Origin: Macrostomum lignano | Taxonomy: Eukaryota | DNA length: 54,334 nt | Direction: 5' to 3' | NCBI GenBank assembly: GCA_002269645.1 | Contig: NIVC01002339.1 | Coordinates: 1-54,334 of the forward strand | In this document: piece by piece, positions 22,290 through 52,922 of the stretch | Layout of the letters: each line of letters opens with the position of its first letter | Position numbering within the stretch: position 1 is the first letter of the stretch | Notes under the pieces: generated by a model | The model's input: only the letters and a program-made list of their open reading frames with translations | Told to the model about the DNA's origin: nothing | Database searches by the model: none | Position numbers and translations under genes: made by a program

Positions 22290-25200
22290 TGTATTTTATC
22301 GGAACGCTGCAGACTGAACGCGGTTCCCGTTGGTTAGCAGAAGTCCAGCTTCCAGATGGTAATAAGCTGCAATGCAAGCTAGACACCGGAGCAGAGGTGA
22401 GCGTGCTGCCAGCAGATTATTTCCCAGTCGGTGAGCAGTTGCTAAAAACTCACACTGTGCTGACGGCGTTTGGAGGAGCTCGCATTCCTGTCGTTGAAAA
22501 GTGTCGTTGAAGGTCAAGGTGCAGGGTCGGCCGTGCGAGATAGAGTTTATGGTTTCAGAGGTTGAACAAGCAATCATTGGTTTACCAGCGCTAAAGGATC
22601 TGGACCTAATTCGACGAGTTGAAAGCGTTAGACAGCTACCAGTGATTGACGAAAAGTTAGTGCTAGAGGAATTCAGTGACCTGTTTGACGACAAACTTGG
22701 CTGTTTGCCTTACGTGCACTCGTTTACTCTCGATGAACATGCTGTTCCTGTCGTCAATGCTCCGAGAAAGATTCCCTTTTGCGCTGCAAGGCAAAGTTCA
22801 GGAGGAGTTAGAGCGCATGGAGGCCCTCGGAGTCATCGTTAAAGTTTCTCAGCCAACGGATTGGGTAAACTCTTTGGTTACTGTACACAAGCCAGATGGC
22901 AGCCTGCGACTGTGTATCGATCCGACACATCTCAACAAAGCTATCAAGCGCGCTCACTACCCGATGACAACAGTTGAGCAAGTTGTTGCGCGCATTCCAG
23001 GTGCCAAGTACTTTACCGTGCTGGATGCAAAGACTGGTTTTTGGCAGATAAGACTTGACGAAGAAAGTACACAGCTCTGTACTTTCAACACTCCGTGGGG
23101 CAGATACAAGTTCGTTCGCCTGCCCCCAGGAACTATTGATGCACCGGAAGTCTACCAACGTGAGCTAAGCAAAATTTTTAGCAGCTGGGCTGAGGTAATT
23201 GTTGATGATATGCTTGTCTGGGGACGGACCCGCGAAGAGCACGATCAGAAGCTACTCAAGGTGCTCAGTGAGGCCCGTCAGTCGAATTTAAAGCTAAATC
23301 GCAAGAAATTGAAAGTTGGTGTTTCTTCAGTAAACTATGTTGGTCACGTGATCTCATCTGACGGTGTTCGTCCAGATCCTGCTAAAGTAAAAGCCATTCA
23401 AGAGCTTCCGGTTCCAGGTGATAAGCAGGCAGTGATGCGGCTGCTTGGCATGACAACCTACCTGGGCAAGTTTATTCCGAATGCGTCGGACATCACTGAA
23501 CCTCTTCGTGCCCTGCTCAAGAAGGAGGTGCTTTTTGACTGGCAAGAGAAGCAGCAACAAGCTTTTTAGAAGCTAAAAGATGTTCTGACGAACGCTCCTG
23601 TGCTAAGGTTGTTTGACGCCGATATGGAAGTTGAGCTTCAAGTTGACAGTTCATCGATCGGAGTTGGTTGCGTTTTGCTGCAGAATGGACAGCCTGTGGC
23701 GTATGGATCGGCTGCGCTGACCAACACGCAAAAGAACTATGCTCAGATTGAGAAGGAGACTCTGGCCGTTGTTATTGCCTGCAAGAAATTCCATGACTAC
23801 ATATATGGCCTTCCAGTAGTACGAGTGACTACAGACCACAAGCCCCTGGAGGTCATTTTTAAGCGTGACTTGCTTCATGTTCCGCCACGCATTGCTCGAA
23901 TGCTGTACCAACTCAAAATATATAATCTGCATGTATCCTGGGCACCGGGATCCAAGATGCTGATTGCCGAAATGCTTTCAAGAGCTTACCTTCCGGAGGC
24001 CGAGGCTGCTCTAGACGACGAAATTGAGGTGGAGGTGCATCAGATGAGCAAGAGCCTCACGATTTCTGCCATTCGTTTGCAGTAAATCCGAGACGAGACC
24101 CGCAAAGATTCGGACTTAAGTTCTGTAGCCCGGTTTGTTCTGACGGGTTGGCCAAGCAACTTTCGGAACATTTGCCACTCTGTCCGTCAGTATTGGAGCT
24201 TCAAGGAGGACTTGACCTACAATGCTGGCGTGCTGATGAAGTTGGACCGCGTTATTGTTCCAGCATCGTTGCGGCAGAAGATTCTGCAAATTTTACACGA
24301 AGGTCATGCTGGCGCGGGCAAGACGGAGGCCCGAGCTCGTCAAATTCTGTACTGGCCAGGAATGTCAGCGGACATTAAGAACTTCGTGAAGAACTGCAGC
24401 ACCTGTCAAACGTTTCAGCCGGCTAACCCAAAGGAACCGCTGTTGAACCATCAGATTCCGAATGCACCATGGACCAAGGTTGGTTGTGATCTGCTGGACT
24501 TCAATGGTGACAAGTGGCTAGTCGTTACCTGCTATTACAGCAACTGGATCGAACTGGCAAAGTTAGGTCAACAGTCTGGAGCTGACCTGGTGATTGCTCG
24601 AATTAAGTCGATGTTTGCCAGGTTCGGTATCGTCGAAGAGCTGGTCAGTGACATGGGCCCCCATTCAGCTCGTTTAAGTTTCAAGAGTTTGCTGCACAGT
24701 TTGGTTTCGTGCACACGCGCTAGTCACGCGGATACCCGCAGTCCAACGGAATGGCTGAGAAGGCAGTCACGGTGGCAAAGAGCACCCTGAGGAAAGCTGA
24801 CTAGCCTGAAATTGCGCTAATGGAATATCGAGCTTCACCAATTAGCGGTACGAGCACCAGCCCCAGCGAGCTCATGTTCGGTCGGTTGATTCGGACGAAG
24901 CTACCAGCAGGTGAAGAGGCGCTGCTCAAAGACAGAACAACCGGATTCTCCAAAGCCCCGCTGCAGGCTGCTCAAAAACGGCACTACGACCAGCAAGCCC
25001 GACCGCTCTCAACACTGAATCGGGGAGATGCAGTTCGTTTTCGGCACGGTTTCAGATGGGAGCCAGCTGTTGTGACGCAAGCTGACCCGGAGCACCGCAA
25101 CTACCGATTGCTGACTCAAAGCGGCAGGGAGCTGATTCGCAATCGCCGGGACCTGCGACCAGTGCCGCCGCAGCAGTCCACTGCTGAAGCCGAAGACGTC

Positions 25201-29040: not shown

Positions 29041-30746
29041 ATGGTTTCAAAACTACAGCCTCTGTACGAGATTGTCCGGGACTCCGTGGCCAACACCACC
29101 GCTCACGCTATCGGCCGAGTGGCTCCTGCGAGTCGACCCGTCGCTCTTCGGGTTTTCTGGCTGCTCACTTTTTTATCCTTTCTTGGCCTGCTACTCAACA
29201 CCTGCATCGTCTACATTGGGAAGCTCAACAGTCCGGGCGTCAAGTCCGAGTTCGAAGCCGAAAAGGTTCCGTTCGAGTTTCCCGACGTGTACTTTTGCAA
29301 CAGTCTGCAAACAGCTGGATCCTTCACGTGTCGCTTGAACAAGTCCGAAGCTGACCAGGTGAAAACTCCATTCTACGCTGCAAATGCCTCATTCCAAGAT
29401 GCGCTCAACTCCCTGAACTCATCGGCCCACATTACCGTCGCACTGGACGAGCTTCGGCCAACAAGCTTGATCCAGTCGCTCCCGTACAAAGTTCTCGCTG
29501 ACATCGTCGGTCAGCGGAAGCTGCAGACTTTCTACATGAACTTCGGCATATTCAGTGCAGGCTCTGAGCCAACACTCGACAAGCCGATTGCGGTCGAGAC
29601 ATTGTACCACCCGAATCACCTGAAGTGCTTTAAGCTGGCCTTGACCGACACTGAGTTGCTCAAAATGCAAAACACAAACAGCAGACTCAAGCTTAATTTA
29701 CACTTGGATCCATACTTTCGCGACTTTGACGAAAAAGGTTTGTTCTCACCACCTGATCAGCGCCTCCCGAACATGACTACAATTGTTTCAGGAAAGTCAG
29801 TAAATGTATATCCGTATGACTGGGACCTGGAGAACCCAATCGGATTCGATAAAGGCAGCGGAATGTACCTCTACCTTACTCCCAGAGGTCAGTATCCTTC
29901 GCGACTCACGTCGACTGTGGTCAGCCTTGGTCCTGGAAGAGCCTATGATATCTCGATCGCGATGCGAGATGTTCTCATGAAGCCGTCGGACTTCCCGGCA
30001 AGTGTGTCTCACAGCACGACGAGCCAGTGTTGTTCCTCAACCCGCGCACCGGTTCTGCCGACGCGTTTAGCTACAGCGAGGCCCACTGCTACTACTCGGA
30101 GATCGCCAGGAGCAGACAGCAGATGTACAACTGCAGTCCTTCACCGGACCCGACACCATGGGAGTTCAGACACTTGGCCTTGTGTCTCAACCTCACTGCA
30201 GCGGCATCGATGGACACCATCCACAGAAATATGAATGCGTTTCTGAGAGCTCGAGAAGACGCTGACAGCGCAAACAGCTCGTGGGACAAAGCGTGCTCAG
30301 AGAAGCGACTGTGCAATCAGCGGCTGTACGATGTGACGTCATCGTACGGATTGTGGCCGAACCAGGGCAGCCTGATTCGCCTAGTGAAAAACCTGTTAGG
30401 ATCTCTGCTAGCGTCTGTGGATCCAACGGATTATAGGTCTTTGGAAACTGGTGTCAAGATTATGAAATTTATGGATGCTTCTGACAGGCTTGGTTTCGAG
30501 GAGGGAGTGTCGCGTTATTTTTCGCGAGCCGCAGTGAGCGTCACGCTTCGAGCGGATGCAACAATGAGCTCTCTGACAACATTCAGTCTTGACTACAATC
30601 TGTCCCAGTTTATCGCTGACATCGGCAGCGCTCTCGGATTGTATCTGGGCTGCTCTCTGCTGACTGTGCTGGAGCTGTTTGAGCTGCTGCACGACGTGAT
30701 TCTGCGTGCGAGTTGCTTGAGGCGCGCGGACAATACGCTCGAATGA
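29041..30746 (+). CDS. DEG/ENaC (degenerin/ASIC family) channel subunit, copy 1; one 1-nt deletion at 29996/29997 relative to copy 2
   Basis: NTTAHAIGRV, TM1 VFWLLTFLSFLGLLL, FPDVYFCN, Cys-rich region, TM2 FIADIGSALGLYLGCSLLTVLE. CCCGGC here versus CCCTGGC in copy 2 splits the ORF. Confidence 0.85.
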
Positions 30747-35198: not shown

Positions 35199-36905
35199 AT
35201 GGTTTCACAGCGCCTGCCTCTGTCAGAGATTGTCCGGGACTCCGTGGCCAACACCACCGCTCACGCTATCGGCCGAGTGGCTCCTGCGAGTCGACACGTC
35301 GCTCTTCGGGTTTTCTGGCTGCTCACTTTTTTATCCTTTCTTGGCCTGCTACTCAACACCTGCATCGTCTACATTGGGAAGCTCAACAGTCCGGGCGTCA
35401 AGTCTGAGTTCGAAGCCGAAAAGGTTCCGTTCGAGTTTCCCGACGTGTACTTTTGCAACAGTCTGCAAACAGCTGGATCCTTCACGTGTCGCTTGAACAA
35501 TTCCGAAGCTGACCAGGTGAAAACTCCATTCTACGCTGCAAATGCCTCATTCCAAGATGCGTTCAACTCCCTGAACTCATCGGCCAACATTACCGTCGCA
35601 CTGGACGAGCTTCGGCCAACAAGCTTGATCCAGTCGCTCCCGTACAAAGTTCTCGCTGACATCGTCGGTCAGCGGAAGCTGCAGACTTTCTACATGAACT
35701 TCGGCATATTCAGTGCAGGCTCTGAGCCAACACTCGACAAGCCGATTGCGGTCGAGACCTTGTACCACCCGAATCACCTGAAGTGCTTTAAGCTGGCCTT
35801 GACCGACGCTGAGTTGCTCAAAATGCAAAACACAAACAGCAGACTCAAGCTTAATTTACACTTGGATCCATACTTTCGCGACTTTGACGAAAAAAGTTTG
35901 TTCTCACCACCTGATCAGCGCCTCCCGAACATGACTATAATTGTTTCAGGAAAGTCAGTAAATGTATATCCGTATGACTGGGACCTGGAGAACCCAATCG
36001 GATTCGATAAAGGCAGCGGAATGTACCTCTACCTTACTCCCAGAGGTCAGTATCCTTCGCGACTCACGTCGACTGTGGTCAGCCTTGGTCCTGGAAGAGC
36101 CTATGATATCTCGATCGCGATGCGAGATGTTCTCATGAAGCCGTCGGACTTCCCTGGCAAGTGTGTCTCACAGCACGACGAGCCAGTGTTGTTCCTCAAC
36201 CCGCGCACCGGTTCTGCCGACGCGTTTAGCTACAGCGAGGCCCACTGCTACTACTCGGAGATCGCCAGGAGCAGACAGCAGATGTACAACTGCAGTCCTT
36301 CACCGGACCCGACACCATGGGAGTTCAGACACTTGGCCTTGTGTCTCAACCTCACTGCAGCGGCATCGATGGACACCATCCACAGAAATATGAATGCGTT
36401 TCTGAGAGCTCGAGAAGACGCTGACAGCGCAAACAGCTCGTGGGACAAAGCGTGCTCAGAGAAGCGACTGTGCAATCAGCGGCTGTACGATGTGACGTCA
36501 TCGTACGGATTGTGGCCGAACCAGGGCAGCCTGATTCGCCTAGTGGAAAACCTGTTAGGATCTCTGATAGCGACTGTGGATCCAACGGATTATAGGTCTT
36601 TGGAAACTGGTGTCAAGATTATGAAATTTATGGATGCTTCTGACAGGCTTGGTTTCGAGGAGGGAGTGTCGCGTTATTTTTCGCGAGCCGCAGTGAGCGT
36701 CACGCTTCGAGCGGATGCAACAATGAGCTCTCTGACAACATTCAGTCTTGACTACAATCTGTCCCAGTTTATCGCTGACATCGGCAGCGCTCTTGGATTG
36801 TATCTGGGCTGCTCTCTGCTGACTGTGCTGGAGCTGTTTGAGCTGCTGCATGACGTAATGCTGGGTGCGAGTTGCTGGAAGCGCGCGGAAGAACAACTAA
36901 ACTGA
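35199..36905 (+). CDS. DEG/ENaC channel subunit, copy 2 (intact, intronless, 568 aa)
   Basis: Two TM segments, FPDVYFCN (FPAVTICN-like), Cys-rich ectodomain, TM2 with GCS filter (G-x-S). Confidence 0.92.
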   Translation: MVSQRLPLSEIVRDSVANTTAHAIGRVAPASRHVALRVFWLLTFLSFLGLLLNTCIVYIGKLNSPGVKSEFEAEKVPFEFPDVYFCNSLQTAGSFTCRLNNSEADQVKTPFYAANASFQDAFNSLNSSANITVALDELRPTSLIQSLPYKVLADIVGQRKLQTFYMNFGIFSAGSEPTLDKPIAVETLYHPNHLKCFKLALTDAELLKMQNTNSRLKLNLHLDPYFRDFDEKSLFSPPDQRLPNMTIIVSGKSVNVYPYDWDLENPIGFDKGSGMYLYLTPRGQYPSRLTSTVVSLGPGRAYDISIAMRDVLMKPSDFPGKCVSQHDEPVLFLNPRTGSADAFSYSEAHCYYSEIARSRQQMYNCSPSPDPTPWEFRHLALCLNLTAAASMDTIHRNMNAFLRAREDADSANSSWDKACSEKRLCNQRLYDVTSSYGLWPNQGSLIRLVENLLGSLIATVDPTDYRSLETGVKIMKFMDASDRLGFEEGVSRYFSRAAVSVTLRADATMSSLTTFSLDYNLSQFIADIGSALGLYLGCSLLTVLELFELLHDVMLGASCWKRAEEQLN

Positions 36906-43233: not shown

Positions 43234-43504
43234 AGTAGTATATAAAAAGACGCTTCTAGACCCAGAGCACTTTTTTAATGACCGTTTTAAGGGTCTAGAG
43301 GGGGGACACGGGGGGTAAATAAAAAAACACATCTAAACACCATTAATACATCTAATCACCCATAATCACCCCTAACAATAAAAATCACTTCCAAACACTT
43401 CCAAACACTCCCCAACACCCCCCTCGCGTCCCCCCTCTTAAGACCTTACAAACGGCCATTAAAATAAGGTCTGATCTAGAAGCGTCTTTTTCTATACTAC
43501 TACT
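43234..43504. repeat. ~85-bp imperfect inverted repeat with AGTAGT...ACTACT ends around a C/A-rich spacer
   Basis: 43234-43316 AGTAGTATATAAAAAGACGCTTCTAGA...GAGGGGGGACACGGGGG versus the reverse complement of 43418-43504. Confidence 0.9.
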
Positions 43505-44124: not shown

Positions 44125-45730
44125 TTAGTTCGCAGACATTATCTGGTTCTCATAAAAAGAACCCAATATTTCTTCACCGTCCTTATCAGCAATTATATAG
44201 GTTGTAGGATTGGTATTTAAAACTTTACTGATAGTAAATTTCTCACTTATCTTCCAATATCCTTTTCTTCCTTTTTCAAACTTATCTTTCCATTTATAGA
44301 TATAAACAGAATCACCAACCTTAAAAGATTTCTTTTTATTTTTTTCAAATTTTCCAAAAGTAACTTTAACGTTTTCAGGATTGTTATAAGCTTGTTGAGG
44401 AGTCATCTTTATCGCCGAATGATATGAATTGTTATAATCTTTCACTACGTCTGGTAATATTTTTACCCACTTTTGGTTACCATTAAGACTAAACTGAAAC
44501 CATAATTTCTTACCTAAAGTTCTATTAAATCTTTCTATTAATGCGTTTTTACTCTCTCCATAAATAGAATAAATTTTATTAATATACTCCCCATTCGCGT
44601 CCTTTTTCCTTTCTTGTCCTTTTTCAAAATGATATAATTTATACATATGAGGATTGTAAAATTCTTTTCCTTCGTCAACACACAAACGTTCGCTTTTTTC
44701 TCCAAGACTTCTAAAAGCAGCAGCAACATCCTCTCCTTTTTTGGATTTCAAAGGAACAGCCCACGCGTATCGAGTAAAACCATCTAATATGGTTAAGATA
44801 TATTTATATCCTCTTTCGTTCGGCATCGACATTAAATCAGCATACCAAATTTCATTCTTTTTGAAGTTCATGATTTTTCTATAAAATTTAGGTTTTCGAT
44901 ATTCTTTATGAAGAATCTTTGCCTCATCAGAACTTAACCCACCGCCACTTAACAACAAACACTCAACACAATTATTTCCATGTTGATTATAATTAATTCC
45001 TAAACCAAATTTAACTTTAGATTGTAGAATTTTTTTAACCATCCACCTAGTTAATCTTTGCCCTACCGATAATCCCTGCAAGTTATCTAATCCTTGAATC
45101 ATTTTTTGATCGGCTTCATGTTTTAATCTTAATGCTTCCTCGGGCGGGTTCTTGTCAGCATCTCTATATGCTAAGTCGTGATAGTATGCTAACCAATCAA
45201 TCCCATTTATTGGAATTGAATCAGATTTTGGGGTGTCATCAGGATTTAATCTCAAATCTAAGCGAGTCCCGGCAGTTTACCCTCAATCTTTCGAAAGAGG
45301 CTGGAGCACACCTTAAGCGGTTAAATTACCGCCCATCTCCGTCTGCTCTCTGAACCTTCTCCTTATATTTAAAATACTTAGGAGCTTGGCTGCGCATTGC
45401 CACCGTGTCTTCAAGCTTGTTACCATCGAACCATAGGTTCGCGTGCAAAGCACGATTGGGAAGAGGAGTTACCTCTGTTCCTTCAAAAGATTTCTCAATT
45501 GAAGTGGTACTTGAAGCTGTATGATGGGTTTCACGCAATTTGGAGATGTCGCCACAAATAGTGACTAGCAAGGACATTGCCTTCCTCACTCAGGCCACGG
45601 GTTAACCTGTGAAGTTCATTGATGGTAGGTGTAGTTCCCCTGTATATTTACCAGTAGTAAAGATTGGTGGTAAGCTTGTTAATCCTTTTTGAACATCTAA
45701 CAATCCTCCTTCAAACACTATTTGGTTCAT
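44125..45730 (-). CDS. Polinton PLA2(X)-rve integrase fusion, 424 aa after removing the group I intron; exon 1 45730-45604, exon 2 45272-44125
   Basis: Spliced: ELHLPSMNFTG-S-GTRLDLRLN...IDWLAYYHDLAY...ADQKM (parvovirus-type PLA2 Ca loop and HD motif), then WYADLM...ILDGFTRYAW...CVDEGKEF...IERFNRTL (D,D,E) and FKVGDSV...GSFYENQI. Confidence 0.9.
45273..45603 (-). ncRNA. Group I self-splicing intron, subgroup IC1-like, 331 nt, no internal ORF recognised
   Basis: P1 CAGGUU/GGCCUG with U.G at the splice site; P10 CCCG/CGGG; P3 CAUCUCC/GGAGAUG; P element AAUUGCGUGAAA; Q element AAUGCGCAGCCAAG; P5abc with A-rich bulge and GAAA loop; receptor CCUAAG...UAAGG; P7 GAGCA/UGCUC with bulged A; P8; terminal G. 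Removal restores the frame. Confidence 0.93.
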
Positions 45731-46280
45731 TTTTAATAGCCTTAAAAATACATGAAAGCACCAATTGTTTTGCAAACTCTTCAATGGTTGGTTGTTTAAC
45801 TTTTTTATAGTTATTATCTACGCTAGTTAAGTATCTTTTATTTGTCCAATGTTCAGACTTTTTCATCTGATCTTCATCTTTGTAACTAAACGAAGAAGCG
45901 GGAATGAAATGATCAATATCTAAATTTCCAGTATAATCTTTTGAAACATAATATTTTCTTGTGAAATTTAACCAATCAAAAAAGAATTCTTTTGTGCAAT
46001 CAAGATATGAGATATAGTCCTTGTCATTAAAATTTTTCAACGCCCAATTTATTTTATTTCTAATTAAAACAATATGTTTGTAATTATCATCATTGTGATA
46101 CTTGTTTTTTCTATATTCATTAAACTTATCTTTATTGTTTTTCATCCAAATAGTAGATGAGGTATTATGACAAGATCGACAATCATTTCTAAATTTTTTT
46201 GAATCATTTCTCCAAAAATAAAATTCTTTCGTCATTGGTTTTTCTTGTTTACACTTAATACAAATCTTTTTAGGTTCCAT
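45711..46280 (-). CDS. Free-standing HNH-type endonuclease with N-terminal zinc finger (189 aa)
   Basis: CIKC...CRSC Zn finger; DIDHFIP...EHWTN...DNNYKK (HNH/N pattern); TAAAATG start; 3' end overlaps the PLA2 start. Confidence 0.75.
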   Translation of the reverse strand: MEPKKICIKCKQEKPMTKEFYFWRNDSKKFRNDCRSCHNTSSTIWMKNNKDKFNEYRKNKYHNDDNYKHIVLIRNKINWALKNFNDKDYISYLDCTKEFFFDWLNFTRKYYVSKDYTGNLDIDHFIPASSFSYKDEDQMKKSEHWTNKRYLTSVDNNYKKVKQPTIEEFAKQLVLSCIFKAIKNEPNSV

Positions 46281-46308: not shown

Positions 46309-46991
46309 TTAAACTCCAGTATGTCCAGCAGCTTTCGCAGCAGCTAAAACAAGTTTTCTAGGAGTTTTAAATCCATCACCAACAGCTGGTTTGTTATTTA
46401 TAGAATTAACAATCCATTTATACAAGCTGGTATTTTTAACAGCTCCTCCTAAATCATCATAAAAAATTCTAGCACTTACTAAATCATTCTAGTATAAAAA
46501 TCAGGGTTAAACTTAACCCTAGGGTTAGTAATAATTCTATATGCTCCGCCCAATTCTCTATATAGTTCATTTCGATCTTTATCAACGTTACCAATTCGGT
46601 AATTATTATTACCTAAATCTGTCACAGCAATACTAGCTGGTACTCTTGGAAATTGTTTAACTTCTTCACCCCTTTCTGCAGCCCTAATCTCTGCACGTCT
46701 AATCTCTGCAACTCTCAATTGAGCTTGATCAACATCATAAGCAGGCGGCTCATCCAAAATTTCATCCTCTTTTGGCTCAGTATTTTTAGCAATTTTTTCC
46801 AGAAGATCTTTATCTGTTTTTTCTAGTTCACTAATTTTCCCAGTAATAGGATTAACAAAAGGAGCAGCAAATCTTTCACCAGCTAATTGTATTCCTAACT
46901 TTCTTTTTTGTAAATTTCTAACAAAATCAGAATATCTTTGCTTCTCTTTATAAATCGCTAACTCTCCATCAACGTCCATAAATTGACTCAT
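46309..46991 (-). CDS. Conserved-type Polinton protein (one frameshift near 46486)
   Basis: N-terminal ERFAAPFVNPIT. A shifted frame continues ...VGDGFKTPRKLVLAAAKAAGHTGV to a stop at 46309, resembling the LLxA...AGN motif of Maverick core-like proteins (weak recognition). Confidence 0.55.
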
Positions 46992-47025: not shown

Positions 47026-48497
47026 ATGGCTGAAACAAAAACTATGTGGAGTGATAAATTTCATTTCAAAAAGCACCGACAGTATATTAATGAGGTCAGA
47101 GCAAGAGATTTAAATTATACCCTACCAACAAGTGATAATTCAAATAACTTTACTACTGGAACGGTAACTTTTGACATCGGCGCAACCAACACTATATTGG
47201 ATATGAAAAATGCATTTTTCCGTGTTAGATGGTTGTATACTAGAAATGATGGAACTGCTCTTGCAGCCGGAGATATCGCAGATCGATCCGGAATAATAAT
47301 AGAAAATGATTGGTTTTATAAATGTTTTTCCCAAGCTCAACTAACTGTTAATGGTGCTGAGGTTGAGACATCATCAAACCCCGCAGAGATTAATGGAGTT
47401 TTGAAACATTTAAATTATACTTATTTATCAAAACAAGTTGGTGATAATGTTGGGTGGATGCCGGATAAAGGTAACGGGCAAGCAGTAGTTTTCCTAATGT
47501 ACAAAACGCAGCCGGTGCAGATACTGCAGCGCTAATTGTTTACCTTAATACAAACATAGTTCCAGTTGTAACCACTATGACTAATACAAAAGATATTAAT
47601 ACTGGTTTTATAGATCGTCAGAATAAATTCCCAGTCGCGGTTTTAACCACAGCAACAGCATATGAGCAGGACTTTTCAATCTTTCCACTATTTGGGTTTT
47701 TCTCACCAAATCGGGTATGGAAAGGATTAAAATTTGGGATACAGTTGCAAATATCTGGTGGATATCAGCCTAGGATACTTTATGGAACCTCAATTTCAAC
47801 CGATATAGCAGTTCGTATAGATTCAATTCAATTAGTCGTACCAACTATTGAGGTAACAGCCCCACTTTTAAAACACATCGATAATCAGTTAACGCATGAT
47901 CAGGAAATATTTTATTTGAATCGTCGACATTTTATGCGAACCATTAATAATAACCAGGATTCATTCCAGTGGCAAATACTGACATCAAAACGTCGGGTGA
48001 GATATATTTTTGTTTGGTTTAAGATAACAAATAGAAGGAGTAAAAGAGCAAATGGGGATTTATATTGGCTTCAATCCGGTGCCATAGCAGAACAAGCAGC
48101 CACCGCAACAGACAATGCGGCTGCAGCTATTAACGAGTTTAATGTTCAGAATATCCGCCTGCAGGTTGATGATCAATATTATCCGGTTAAAGACCCCCTA
48201 AATTTAAATATAGCAAATAATAATGTTAATGATTTTATAAAATATTATCAAGATTATGCTAAAAATGAAGCGTATGCCGTCCCTCAGTACACACCCACAG
48301 AGTTTCTAAACATTCATCCAGTGGTTGTTTATGATCTAACGGCACAGAAAGAAAACGTAGCCAATATTGGACTTAATTATATGTTAGAGATTAATAAAAC
48401 CGGTAATCAGGCACTTGACGCCCACGTATTGTTTCTAGAGGAATATATGTCAATTGCTAAAGCTGATGGCACGATTGTTCGGGACGCACCATTGTAA
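47026..48497 (+). CDS. Major capsid protein (double jelly-roll), split by one frameshift at ~47490
   Basis: FSQAQLTVNGAEVE, VRIDSIQLVVP, RYIFVWF, NIRLQVDDQYYP, VVYDLT. A shift in the T-run GTTTTCCT joins ORFs 47026-47535 and 47577-48497. Confidence 0.88.
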
Positions 48498-48581: not shown

Positions 48582-49376
48582 ATGGTAAAGGCAAAACACA
48601 ATAAAATATTTCCAAATGATCCTTTTCTTTGTTTAGTAATCGGAGGATCAGGTAAAGGAAAAACACACTTTGTTTACGATTTATTAACAACAGATGGAAT
48701 GTTAGACTATAATAATTTAATAATTTATACTAATAAACCTAGAATAAAATATTATGAATTTCTTAAACATGGATTAAAAAACAAATTAAAAAAAGATGTC
48801 TTGTTTAGAATGTTAAGAGCATATGAGCAATATGAGGATGATGACGAACCGCGATTTAATCTAGCAGACATTGAGGATTTATGTAAAACAATGGCACAAC
48901 AGCCAGAAAACATCACCGATCGCCCCGAAGGGTCGCGGACTTCGTCCGATCGCGCCCCAACTGTTAGAGTATCAACCCGATTAGCCTATGATCAAATTCC
49001 AAAACATGATAAAACACTAATTATTTTTGATGATTGTATTAATGACGGTGATCAAGAATTGCAAAAGGAAATTTTTGTTAGTGGTAGAGGAGATGGAATT
49101 GGAGCTTTTTATCTTACTCAATCCTTTAGAGAATTAGAATCGATTATAAAAAAGAATGCTAGCTGTTGTGTAATGTTTGATTTAGATAACTATGATCTAC
49201 AAAATATTCACGCTAGATTTAATCCCGGATTGGATGCAAAACCATTTAAAAGTATGTGTAAAAAAATTTGGGATGATAGCCAATACAAACATATTTATAT
49301 CAATCCGAGGTTAGAAAGGAAACATAGAATTTTAACAAATTTGATAAAAGAAGATAATGAGGAAGAAGAGACATAG
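48582..49376 (+). CDS. A32/FtsK-like DNA packaging ATPase
   Basis: Walker A GGSGKGKT, Walker B LIIFDD, SGR (Arg finger), YLTQ, IKKNA. Confidence 0.93.
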   Translation: MVKAKHNKIFPNDPFLCLVIGGSGKGKTHFVYDLLTTDGMLDYNNLIIYTNKPRIKYYEFLKHGLKNKLKKDVLFRMLRAYEQYEDDDEPRFNLADIEDLCKTMAQQPENITDRPEGSRTSSDRAPTVRVSTRLAYDQIPKHDKTLIIFDDCINDGDQELQKEIFVSGRGDGIGAFYLTQSFRELESIIKKNASCCVMFDLDNYDLQNIHARFNPGLDAKPFKSMCKKIWDDSQYKHIYINPRLERKHRILTNLIKEDNEEEET

Positions 49377-50431: not shown

Positions 50432-50872
50432 ATGACCATGACGTGGGATGATTTTAAACAAAGATATGGAACGGACACAACAAGCAATATCGAATTAACA
50501 AATTGGGCGAGGCAGTTAAAAATAAAACCATTCAGATGTGTTATGCGGGATGAGATAAAAGACTTACCACAATATGGATGTTTCATTGTTAATATTGAAA
50601 CAACAAAAGAAAATGGTGTTCATTGGTCAGCAGTTTATTCCAAACCTAAACTTGTTTATTTTTTTGATTCATATGCGCTTCCTCCGTTACAGGAAATAAA
50701 AGACAAATTTAATCATACTAAAAATCGTTTATGTGGAGATCATCACGAACAATTTCAAACCTTTGATAAAAGTTATTGCGGGCAAGCGGCGTTGTATTTT
50801 TTATATCGACTTTCGAATGAAGCTCGTGTAAACCCCGAAGTATTTAAGATGATTTTAGACTCTATAAAATAG
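50432..50872 (+). CDS. Adenain-like cysteine protease (capsid maturation)
   Basis: IVNI...GVHW, YFFDSY, QFQ...YCG: His-Asp-Gln-Cys arrangement. Confidence 0.92.
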   Translation: MTMTWDDFKQRYGTDTTSNIELTNWARQLKIKPFRCVMRDEIKDLPQYGCFIVNIETTKENGVHWSAVYSKPKLVYFFDSYALPPLQEIKDKFNHTKNRLCGDHHEQFQTFDKSYCGQAALYFLYRLSNEARVNPEVFKMILDSIK

Positions 50873-50882
50873 ACAGTAAAAA

Positions 50883-52922
50883 ATGTTATTTTCTGGAACA
50901 CCCTCATGGAACGGAACATCAAGTACTGGTGGTGGTACTTCTGGTGGAATAAGTGTTACATTCGGAGATAACCGATATATTAATGAAGATGAAGGTTATA
51001 AAAAAAGTGAAGTTGATACTAAACTAAATTTAAAAAGAAATGTTGCAGATTCCTATACCAAAACTCAAATAGATAATTCCCTAAATTTAAAACGGAACGT
51101 AGCCGATTCATATACAAAAACAGAGGTTGACAATGGGTTAAATTTAAAAAGAGATATAACTGATTCTTATTCTCGAACTCAAATAGATGATTCATTAAAT
51201 TTAAAACGCAATACGGCCGATTCTTATACCAAAACCGAAGTTGATAATTCCCTAAATTTAAAACGGAATGTTGCTGATTCCTATACCAAAACTGAAGTTG
51301 ATAATTCCCTAAATTTAAAAAGAGATATAACTGATTCCTATACCAAAACCGAAGTTGATAATTCCCTAAATTTAAAAAGAGATATAACTGATTCTTATAG
51401 CAAAACTGAAGTTGATAATTCCTTAAATTTAAAAAGAGATATAACTGATTCCTATACCAAAACGGAGGTTGATAATTTAGTTGGGGTGGAGCCCCAAAAC
51501 AAGATCGATTCCAAACGGTTGAAACTGGTCACATACCTACCATGGCAGATTGGAGTGGAAATGGTTTTGCAATAACCGCAAGCACTGCATTTAATACAAC
51601 TGATTTTGCAAGTTGGAAAGCGTTTGATGGAAATGATTCAACAGATTGGGCAACAAATAATACTCAAACCGATTATTGGATTCAAGTCCAATGCCCTTCC
51701 GCAATAATGTGTTATAAAATTGATTTACGTGTAGGCCATCACCTTCAACCGAGCACCAGCATCATGGCGATTTGAGGGAAGTAATGACAATACAAGTTGG
51801 GACGTATTAATACCTGCGGATAGTTCTGTAGCAATAAATAACTCAACTCAAACAATTAATGTCACACAAAATTTTGATAAAACATATTCATATTTCAGAT
51901 TGTTCTGTCTTACATCAACCTCGGGTTCAACCAACCCGGGTCTGTCAACCTTCCAGATTTATAGACAGACGTTTACAATTCTTGATTTAAATTTGGGAGT
52001 GGTTAATCAATCAATTGATATGGGAGGTAATACAATTACTAATATCTCTACTATAAACAATAACAGTTCTGTTGTTACTAAAGGTTATGTTGATACGCGA
52101 GTAACACAAACGGCGGATGGCCGAATGTCTTTTAACGATAAAATAAAATTGGATGGAATACCTGCAATCGATGCCGCTTTGTACGAGCCTGTAATTTGCA
52201 ATTGGACTGGATATCAAAACCCAACCACAGCCGGTGATATTTTTCCAACTGGAAGTTTTGTTGGTAGCGCTACTTATATTGATTATCAAAATGGAGCTAG
52301 AATTACTGATGAAGCAAGTGGTCAGTCTGGAGCGTTGCAATTTAATTTCACCCATTTTCGTAATATCTCCGCCTCCTTCTATTTCCGAGTTGCTAATGCT
52401 ACAGGAAGTGGTGCTGATGCGGTTTGGTTTTATGCATATTGTCACGAACGTCCAACAAGTGAATTTGGATCCGGGTTAACAACCCGCGCCGGCTTGATTG
52501 TGTTTGCGAGTGAATGGCATGATAGAGTTGGGTTGTTTGGAGCAATATAAAATCAGACGGTGCAACAGCTCGTAATGATGTTCTTAATGACGCAGATCAA
52601 ACTATAACCTATGCTAATATTGATAACGGCGATTGGCATCTTTTTGAAATTAATATTTTAAATCAAAGAGTTTGGTATCAAATAAGCACATACAATGTAT
52701 CAGCTAATACATATACGCTAATTGGCAAAACTTTTTTACATATGATAGTGGAACTTGGGGAGATTTAGATAAAACGGGAACTCTTATGGGTTTTGGTGCT
52801 CGAACTGGAGGAGCAGATGCCGCACATTTTATTCGTGGGCAGCCGTTTGTGGTAGCACATCAGCAGGATATGATTTTGCTGCGACCGCATATTTGGAACG
52901 GCCACAAACCGAAATACCTTAA
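50883..52922 (+). CDS. Fiber/receptor-binding-like protein: 18-aa repeat shaft, F5/8C-like domain, fiber motif, L-type lectin-like head; about five frameshifts
   Basis: About nine KR(N/D)xxDSYTKTEVDNSLNL repeats; WKAFDG...WIQVQCP...WRFEGSND...YSYFRL; IDMGGNTITNI...VTKGYVD; GADAVWF...WHLFEI...GFGARTGGADAAH. Confidence 0.75.

Follow-up and report, generated by a model that had tools for sequence, protein, structure and literature searches.

Group I introns of three types at one codon boundary of a PLA2-integrase gene in Macrostomum lignano Polintons point to a selfish homing hot spot

A 54,334-nt stretch of Macrostomum lignano DNA, which is one whole contig in a 764-Mb assembly and is called the window here, carries a Polinton copy whose PLA2-integrase gene is interrupted by a group I intron. 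The likely explanation, judging from comparison with sibling copies and relatives, is that this is a selfish homing intron lodged in a conserved codon of a polyprotein gene, and that it splices from mRNA in an animal nucleus. In the mechanism that we propose, the transcript would fold and guanosine bound in P7 would attack the U.G pair after 45605, P9.0 and P10 would align the 3′ end so that the exons are joined in phase, and the joined RNA would encode a 424-aa polyprotein, the 42-aa stub encoded by unspliced RNA being a side effect of the intron position. The PLA2, a probable virion protein, would bring the integrase into the particle, where the protease of the element would cut at GX|G and GG|X sites. 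The intron would home between co-resident elements by means of an Eco47II-like nuclease encoded inside it (type B) or, in types A and C, through an HNH-like or Eco47II-like nuclease just upstream, in what would be collaborative homing. A broader reading is more tentative, and we give it somewhat short of an even chance: that group I ribozymes actively splice from protein-coding animal mRNA and home among germ-line endogenous viruses, that the A-ending majority of them is host-assisted, and that the interrupted gene is a Gag-Pol analogue, in which an integrase is fused or -1 frameshifted to a virion phospholipase and matured by the protease.

The Polinton copies sit integrated in an animal nuclear genome. 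Three contigs with intron copies (C506, C952 and C67) also carry Wnt genes, and the window contains three DEG/ENaC-family frames. Long single-frame host DEG/ENaC channel genes were seen at 29041-30746 and 35199-36905, with one broken into two frames, and the host flank also holds a reverse-transcriptase fragment (22733-23569). The Polinton copy spans from 43234 to the contig end, with the following features outside the interrupted gene:

43234..43503, no strand assigned: Polinton left end, beginning AGTAGT, with an imperfect internal inverted repeat (43234-43315 / 43420-43503)
47026..48497, plus strand: probable major capsid gene, assigned from size and position, broken near 47490 in the window copy
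48582..49376, plus strand: packaging ATPase (Pox_A32; Pfam scan, E 9.8e-07)
50432..50872, plus strand: adenain-like cysteine protease (H64, D79, Q109, C116)

Eight sibling loci align from 43234, and for seven the alignment covers about 970 bases at 98%; none extends further left. Of the two ends of the element, the window contains the left one only. An element-end inverted repeat starting AGTAGT was observed in both element families with different spacing (window 43234-43503; L036 3644-3745). The Polinton traits found were an rve integrase, a packaging ATPase, a cysteine protease and a protein-primed DNA polymerase B, the last in siblings; since in ten sibling copies polymerase B (PF03175) is 10-11 kb away from the intron, that of the window copy would fall beyond the contig end. 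The candidates for the double and single jelly-roll capsid proteins, ORFs of fitting size and place, gave no Pfam match, and their capsid identity is our reading of those two properties; in sibling L313 the major capsid candidate is one 493-aa frame, with 99% identity over 335 aa. The protease that the preliminary description of this DNA had assumed is encoded and intact, with all four residues in place; among 13 sequences H and D are invariant and Q and C at least 90% conserved. The best PDB match of the protease profile was adenovirus protease, a weak one (E 0.046), and a single protease sequence searched against PDB gave no match. Tandem 19-aa repeats (SYTKTEVDNSLNLKR-like) were noted at 50883-51500 in a probable fibre or penton-associated protein, which forms a single 484-aa frame in L313 and is split in the window. 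L313 also carries a Tc1/mariner-type transposase inserted within the element (L313:7777-8475).

That a ribozyme intron interrupts the gene had been proposed from the letters alone; an RF00028 match at 45282-45614 on the minus strand bears this out and places the intron in group I (62.1 bits, where the gathering score is 50; E 3.4e-15). A fast gathering-mode Rfam scan over the whole window overlooked this match. Folding of the intron region gave z = -3.88, none of 100 shuffles being equally good. The gene is laid out as follows:

45605..45730, minus strand: exon 1, 42 codons, the last being the Gly codon of the PLA2 calcium loop
45273..45604, minus strand: group I intron, type A, 332 nt, without an ORF, delimited by RF00028 and sibling comparison
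45595-45591, minus strand: guide sequence of the type-A intron
45350-45344 with 45308-45303, minus strand: P7 of the type-A intron
45300-45281, minus strand: P9 of the type-A intron, whose last base is the G at 45273
44125..45272, minus strand: exon 2, with the remaining PLA2, a linker and the rve integrase with its C-terminal domain; one base short in the first two codons here

We compared 40 type-A copies (first 30, then 10) out of 200 candidates. All of the first 30 have the counterpart of U45605 as the final base of exon 1 and a stop triplet at the start of the intron, and types B and C have the same codon boundary as their 5′ site. This last U of exon 1 pairs with a guide G, giving a U.G pair at the 5′ splice site. 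The intron-less natural alleles read Gly-Pro across the insertion site, and Pro follows the site in 55 of the 59 related loci that cover it, where the junction first suggested would give Ser. On these comparisons the family junction falls in the PLA2 calcium loop, where the Gly codon meets the Pro codon, at the most conserved codon boundary, and the intron is placed at 45604-45273. Its 3′ end is fixed because P9.0 changes compensatorily, from AG/CU in the window to GA/UC in the metagenome locus L079. P7 with its bulge and G-C guanosine site, P3, P4 and P9.0 are all present, with compensatory changes among type A, type B and L079; between A and B, P7 has three such pairs, and further ones occur in P3 and P4. 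The preliminary description was right that, from the ATG at 45730, 42 codons lead to a stop triplet at 45604-45602, at which unspliced RNA stops at once. It had composed this stop of the last exon U and two intron A's, and here it has to be corrected: the triplet is the first three bases of the intron, and the 5′ splice site follows U45605.

Of the 40 type-A copies, 38 keep exon 2 in phase, whereas the window copy and L028 are one base short. In the window, the missing base is at about 45272-45268 and the shortfall is absent from 10 of 10 siblings compared. Further private one-base shortfalls lie near 46490 (10/10 siblings differ) and near 47490 (5/5), the latter breaking the probable capsid gene, and these private indels elsewhere in the copy point to decay or assembly error for the shortfall at 45272-45268. 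The earlier junction at 45604 fitted because the window copy itself is one base short. The open frame of exon 2 runs for 382 aa in 18 of 30 copies and for 396 aa in one, and the 424-aa spliced product predicted for the window (42 + 382 aa) thus belongs, on this reading of the sequences, to the family and not to the window copy as assembled. The claim that PLA2 and rve share one frame downstream held, across the family and in intron-less relatives too, and between KFGLG and LSGGG the window has no stop. It is very improbable that the window copy alone is rescued by a cut one base later, at 45604, through a second U.G pair, to give 424 aa with Ser for Pro. The first intron U can indeed pair with the next guide G, and P10 would then be bulge-free, but such a cut would replace the Pro that those 55 of 59 related loci have at this position, and the shortfall that it would repair is private and stands alongside private indels that break neighbouring genes.

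Spliceosomal removal was considered as well, as the 5′ end resembles AG|GT, and was rejected: only 10 of 89 type-A introns end in AG, and the frame would shift. Contigs from four runs (three guessed to be RNA, one unknown) compared with sibling L002 gave no intron-spanning join, a result that is uninformative both ways, as contigs drop rare forms. Across 35 codons of exon 1, synonymous codon variants numbered 14 and non-synonymous ones 13, with one divergent haplotype excluded, and constraint on exon 1 is modest. Inserts at the start of exon 1 keep the frame in L046 and L047, one an A-ending and one a G-ending copy. These belong to a set of GC-rich palindromic inserts of 33-63 nt placed right after the start codon (window 45722-45727) in L046, L047, L283, L285, L291 and run contigs, with the frame kept in the copies read, and similar palindromes recur as loose ends elsewhere in the element.

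A genome-wide search with RF00028 gave 28 additional matches above cut-off. The 14 of these that were fetched are of a second kind, type B, which occupies the same insertion site, measures 836-895 nt and scores 72.7-91 bits. Its 5′ loop contains a 228-aa ORF that matches Pfam RE_Eco47II above cut-off, and most of these nuclease ORFs are broken, with 3 of 13 parsed reaching at least 228 aa. In type C, undetected by RF00028 at E <= 0.01, all 13 loci have the 5′ site and the peripheral stems of types A and B but another core, and guide and exon change together in 13 of 13. The 3′ end of type C cannot restore the canonical Gly-Pro-Gly-Thr, and the frame is kept only via non-canonical junctions (L279-L291, G000); this intron looks chimeric, with a P7 that may resemble subgroup IE. 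The 419-aa frames first taken as intron-less alleles turned out to be type C. In the genome we counted 141 exact A+B core 17-mers (control 0), 24 type-C copies and 26 intron-less motifs, that is, about 165 intron-bearing to 26 empty copies. In an unrelated metagenome contig (L079:1-175), the same PLA2 site is occupied by a homologous group I intron, of which the 3′ half is present, indicating that the invasion is not limited to this genome; an Rfam scan of 10 metagenome loci, this half intron included, gave no match.

The start of exon 1 overlaps a further gene:

45711..46280, minus strand: free-standing HNH-like nuclease gene; other copies have an Eco47II-like nuclease in this slot

Its product had no Pfam match, and in the Atlas the nearest clusters were unnamed viral proteins (0.95-0.96), the nearest named ones being HNH (0.87-0.89), and the HNH label is offered as a lead only. 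Of the 81 loci examined, the 67 with an intron all have a nuclease, either within it or immediately upstream, as against 2 of the 14 intron-less ones. In type B it is inside (14 loci); in type A it is upstream, HNH-like in 29 and Eco47II-like in 11, and type C has 8 HNH-like and 5 Eco47II-like cases, so that a free-standing nuclease accompanies an ORF-less intron in 53 of 53 type-A and type-C loci. Eco47II matches in 17 type-A loci were discarded, since the tail of the query overlapped the intron core and the matches were lost with a trimmed query. GGC precedes the site in 24 of the 26 empty sites, which comprise only five sequence types (four of the five have GGC); across four gene copies this codon accounts for 12 of 104 Gly codons, and every parsed intron copy has a U-ending codon instead. 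Both the nuclease and the GGC associations speak for homing, but they rest on few independent lineages. Three intron types, each with a nuclease, together with the empty alleles, favour a selfish homing hot spot over a regulatory gate, and it is to the former that the sequences point.

The preliminary description had proposed the gate, with the element having adopted ribozyme splicing as a switch that controls entry and integration together. The first triplet of the type-A intron is an in-frame stop, and expression from the exon-1 ATG therefore depends on splicing; the relatives, moreover, appear to meter integrase by -1 frameshift (below), which makes expression control plausible here, and a fixed terminal A could slow the second splicing step. 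However, open-frame intron-less alleles coexist in the genome, the site has received three unrelated or chimeric introns, each with a nuclease inside or alongside, nothing resembling a sensor was seen as an insert, and the in-frame stop is not conserved, falling several codons further in for types B and C, unlike type A. We consider an evolved gate improbable on these grounds. Expression does depend on splicing, but under the selfish homing explanation that we prefer this is a by-product.

A G at the 3′ end is near-universal in group I introns. The 3′ base of the type-A introns is A in 69 of 89 copies and G in 20, the window copy being among the latter; the terminal G is kept in 13 of 13 parsed type-B introns and in L079. 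P7 is unchanged between A-ending and G-ending type-A copies, and since L079 combines the same P7 type with a terminal G, a remodelled P7 was ruled out as the explanation for the terminal A. In favour of function in the A-ending copies, P2 is rewritten yet fully paired in five of them, though disrupted in one more, and 18 of the 19 full-length exon-2 frames come from A-ending copies. One A-ending group I intron is known to be spliced in vivo, the sea anemone mitochondrial ND5-717, according to the part of PMC8146996 available to us. The copies described here resemble it as natural A-ending group I introns in an animal; as far as that text goes, ND5-717 is mitochondrial and contains genes inside P8, whereas here A-ending and G-ending forms occur in one nuclear family.

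The introns might be passengers that splice poorly or not at all, with intron-less copies or an internal start supplying integrase and PLA2. The terminal A of most type-A copies and the non-canonical type-C junction would suit such a reading, the 26 intron-less alleles are possible helpers, and the integrase could start without splicing at Met 45102, since the 325-aa frame from this internal codon includes the entire integrase. We nevertheless find it unlikely: intron-bearing copies greatly outnumber empty ones in the counts given above, the core helices pair in nearly all copies with compensatory changes that include A-ending lineages, the exon-1 inserts keep the frame, and the ND5-717 case demonstrates that an A-ending intron can be spliced. 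Most type-A copies, A-ending as they are, would then probably still splice, more slowly or with assistance from the host, for which A-to-I editing of the terminal base is given as an example and is speculation on our part.

The introns probably came from the intron pool of giant viruses. Their exact P6/P7 core is present in at least 120 IMG/VR stretches, and 18 of these that we inspected hold mostly giant-virus capsid and RNA polymerase genes, as read from sequence motifs. Five of the 120 share the type-A P7 and J8/7 variant, and an HNH-like relative lies upstream of two such stretches (L180, L237). Although the P6/P7 core is identical, host gene and host range differ, and the similarity is confined to the core (75-87% over 60-160 nt). 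The 21 IMG/VR matches to the guide 16-mer did not extend and were put down to chance.

Group I introns are not known from animal mRNA. With about 165 natural copies, three types, A and G ends, and empty alleles as controls, the system described here makes the reason for their absence directly testable. Nuclear group I introns are stated, in the portions of PMC3679873 and PMC9223047 at hand, to occur only in rRNA genes of microbial eukaryotes; ours resemble those rDNA introns, as the same portions describe them, in being nuclear, in having a P1-P9 core and in the optional nuclease ORF in a peripheral loop, and differ in that the nucleus is that of an animal and the interrupted gene codes for a protein, albeit one of an endogenous virus. 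RF00028 introns are reported in PLVs of three protist groups only, namely Rhodomonas lacustris cluster C3, Paulinella and Desmodesmus (accessible text of PMC12220804). Both sets are group I introns, of 300-380 nt in the protists, that lie within a protein-coding gene of integrated Preplasmiviricota elements; in that text the protist introns are located in a short gene, itself upstream of the capsid gene, and have no nuclease assigned, whereas the M. lignano introns combine an animal host, a PLA2-integrase gene, and three intron types, nucleases and empty alleles together. Collaborative homing, in which a free-standing nuclease stands beside an ORF-less intron, is described from phages in the sections of PMC11296320 seen. 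The arrangement of types A and C is similar, and the nuclease family recurs within a sister intron; here the slot alternates between two nuclease folds, and types A and C are candidate collaborative homing systems. Every stage of a proposed route from free-standing to intron-encoded nuclease can be seen at this one site. Each part of the system is of a known kind; the novelty lies in the host, in the gene, in the competition of three intron types and in an A-ending majority. The literature searched contained neither a report of group I introns from animal Polintons nor any description of a PLA2-integrase fusion or frameshift; supplements, the genome maps of PMC8502044 and PMC11071296, the PMC12220804 ncRNA tables, Repbase and paywalled papers, which could hold cases, lay outside this search. 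The consulted parts of 10.1101/2023.08.22.554363, PMC3671162, PMC11131425, PMC11161782, 10.64898/2026.10.13.758929 and PMC8971849 held nothing on the matter.

The protein encoded by the interrupted gene has two domains and three Gly motifs, which the preliminary description had taken as protease-like cleavage sites at the domain borders:

45701..45715, minus strand: FEGG|L motif, N-terminal; agrees with GG|X but not with the strict adenain pattern; inside low-confidence segment 1-11
45001..45272, minus strand: PLA2 domain, exon-2 part, with the H-D catalytic pair and the later Asp present
44998..45009, minus strand: FGLG motif at the PLA2 end; fits GX|G but not the strict adenain pattern; start of a low-confidence segment
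44938..44952, minus strand: LSGGG motif; fits the strict adenain and mavirus patterns; end of low-confidence segment 134-154
44656..44862, minus strand: rve integrase core (PF00665), E 8.7e-08, with D, D and E invariant in 35 homologues

The PLA2 half encoded by exon 2 alone matches PF08398 below cut-off (E 0.0026), whereas intron-less homologues exceed it. A fold search with an intron-less natural sibling matched foamy-virus integrase (E 2.3e-14) and returned integrases only, so that the PLA2 is not confirmed by it. A structural model of an intron-less natural sibling, built from 35 sequences (pLDDT 79, pTM 0.51), has two confident domains, and pLDDT falls below 50 at 1-11 and 134-154, although the linker is thinly aligned, which may depress this value. 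The Gly motifs lie at 6-9, 132-134 and 150-154. All three motifs named earlier are present, at the edges of low-confidence linkers, but their fit to adenain fails for FEGG and FGLG: one of the three predicted sites conforms to the strict pattern, (M/L/I)XGG|X or (M/L/I)XGX|G, and all three to the looser mavirus pattern. The middle cut, drawn earlier as FGLG|I, would instead be GL|G under GX|G.

The motif (L/I)-x-G-x-G is kept in the four lineages with this linker, and x-G-x-G closes the PLA2 in 66 of the 66 related loci whose PLA2 match reaches the end. As G-x-G is kept even where just a short basic tail follows, it may be structural, and x-G-x-G at this position would fit a cut site or a structural cap. 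The mavirus protease MVP cuts GG|X and GX|G, and mavirus virions contain integrase and a cleaved hydrolase, according to the available text of PMC6048507, in which the integrase is a separate gene, unlike the fused PLA2-integrase here. We slightly favour the view that the protease of the element cuts the polyprotein at the GX|G and GG|X sites flanking its domains; no substrate of a Polinton protease was found in the literature searched. The adintoviruses, as described in the part of PMC8502044 consulted, share with the present element a parvovirus-VP1-type PLA2, an animal Polinton, an rve integrase, an ATPase and an adenain-like protease. Their PLA2X ends in a pX-like domain (same part of that source), which is lacking here, the order being PLA2, linker and integrase, in frame or, in relatives, with an apparent -1 frameshift.

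As to whether the fusion is ancestral, the comparison with related loci indicates that the link between PLA2 and integrase is old. Intron-less PLA2-rve fusions were found by Pfam scan outside this genome (P0001, P0003, P0005, P0007 and P0009), and P0003 alone as query gave no IMG/VR relative. PLA2 and rve are neighbours in 71 of 81 related loci; they share a frame in 23 of these and are split in 48. Of the split loci, 43 have a complete PLA2 end; relative to PLA2, the integrase there is at -1 in 38, at +1 in four and in the same frame in one; the 38 correspond to 30 clusters at 90% identity and 10 at 70%. An in-phase slippery heptamer is present in 29 of the 38 (15 and 14 in the other phases), and in 33 the conserved ELH motif of the integrase comes before the first Met. 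In the metagenome loci L111-L158 (e.g. L112, L130, L141) we observed PLA2 and integrase overlapping in the -1 frame, slippery heptamers and no early Met, and a programmed -1 frameshift giving a Gag-Pol-like product is probable in these Polinton-type elements. Frameshifts are proposed in section 16 of PMC11071296, the part seen, for penton and hexon-adenain and not for PLA2-integrase. Since both one-frame and -1 arrangements occur across the relatives, we infer an old link that looks like Gag-Pol, and such a fusion or frameshift suggests how Polintons package their integrase.

Two other proteins were noted in passing. In the 564-aa P0010, a Ulp1/adenain-like protease domain is fused to a C-terminal PLA2 domain. 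In the type-B element, the G-x-G-hydrophobic motif recurs in ORFs at L036:6268-7238, where GG is also followed by a hydrophobic stretch that is pX-like; these are further candidate protease substrates.
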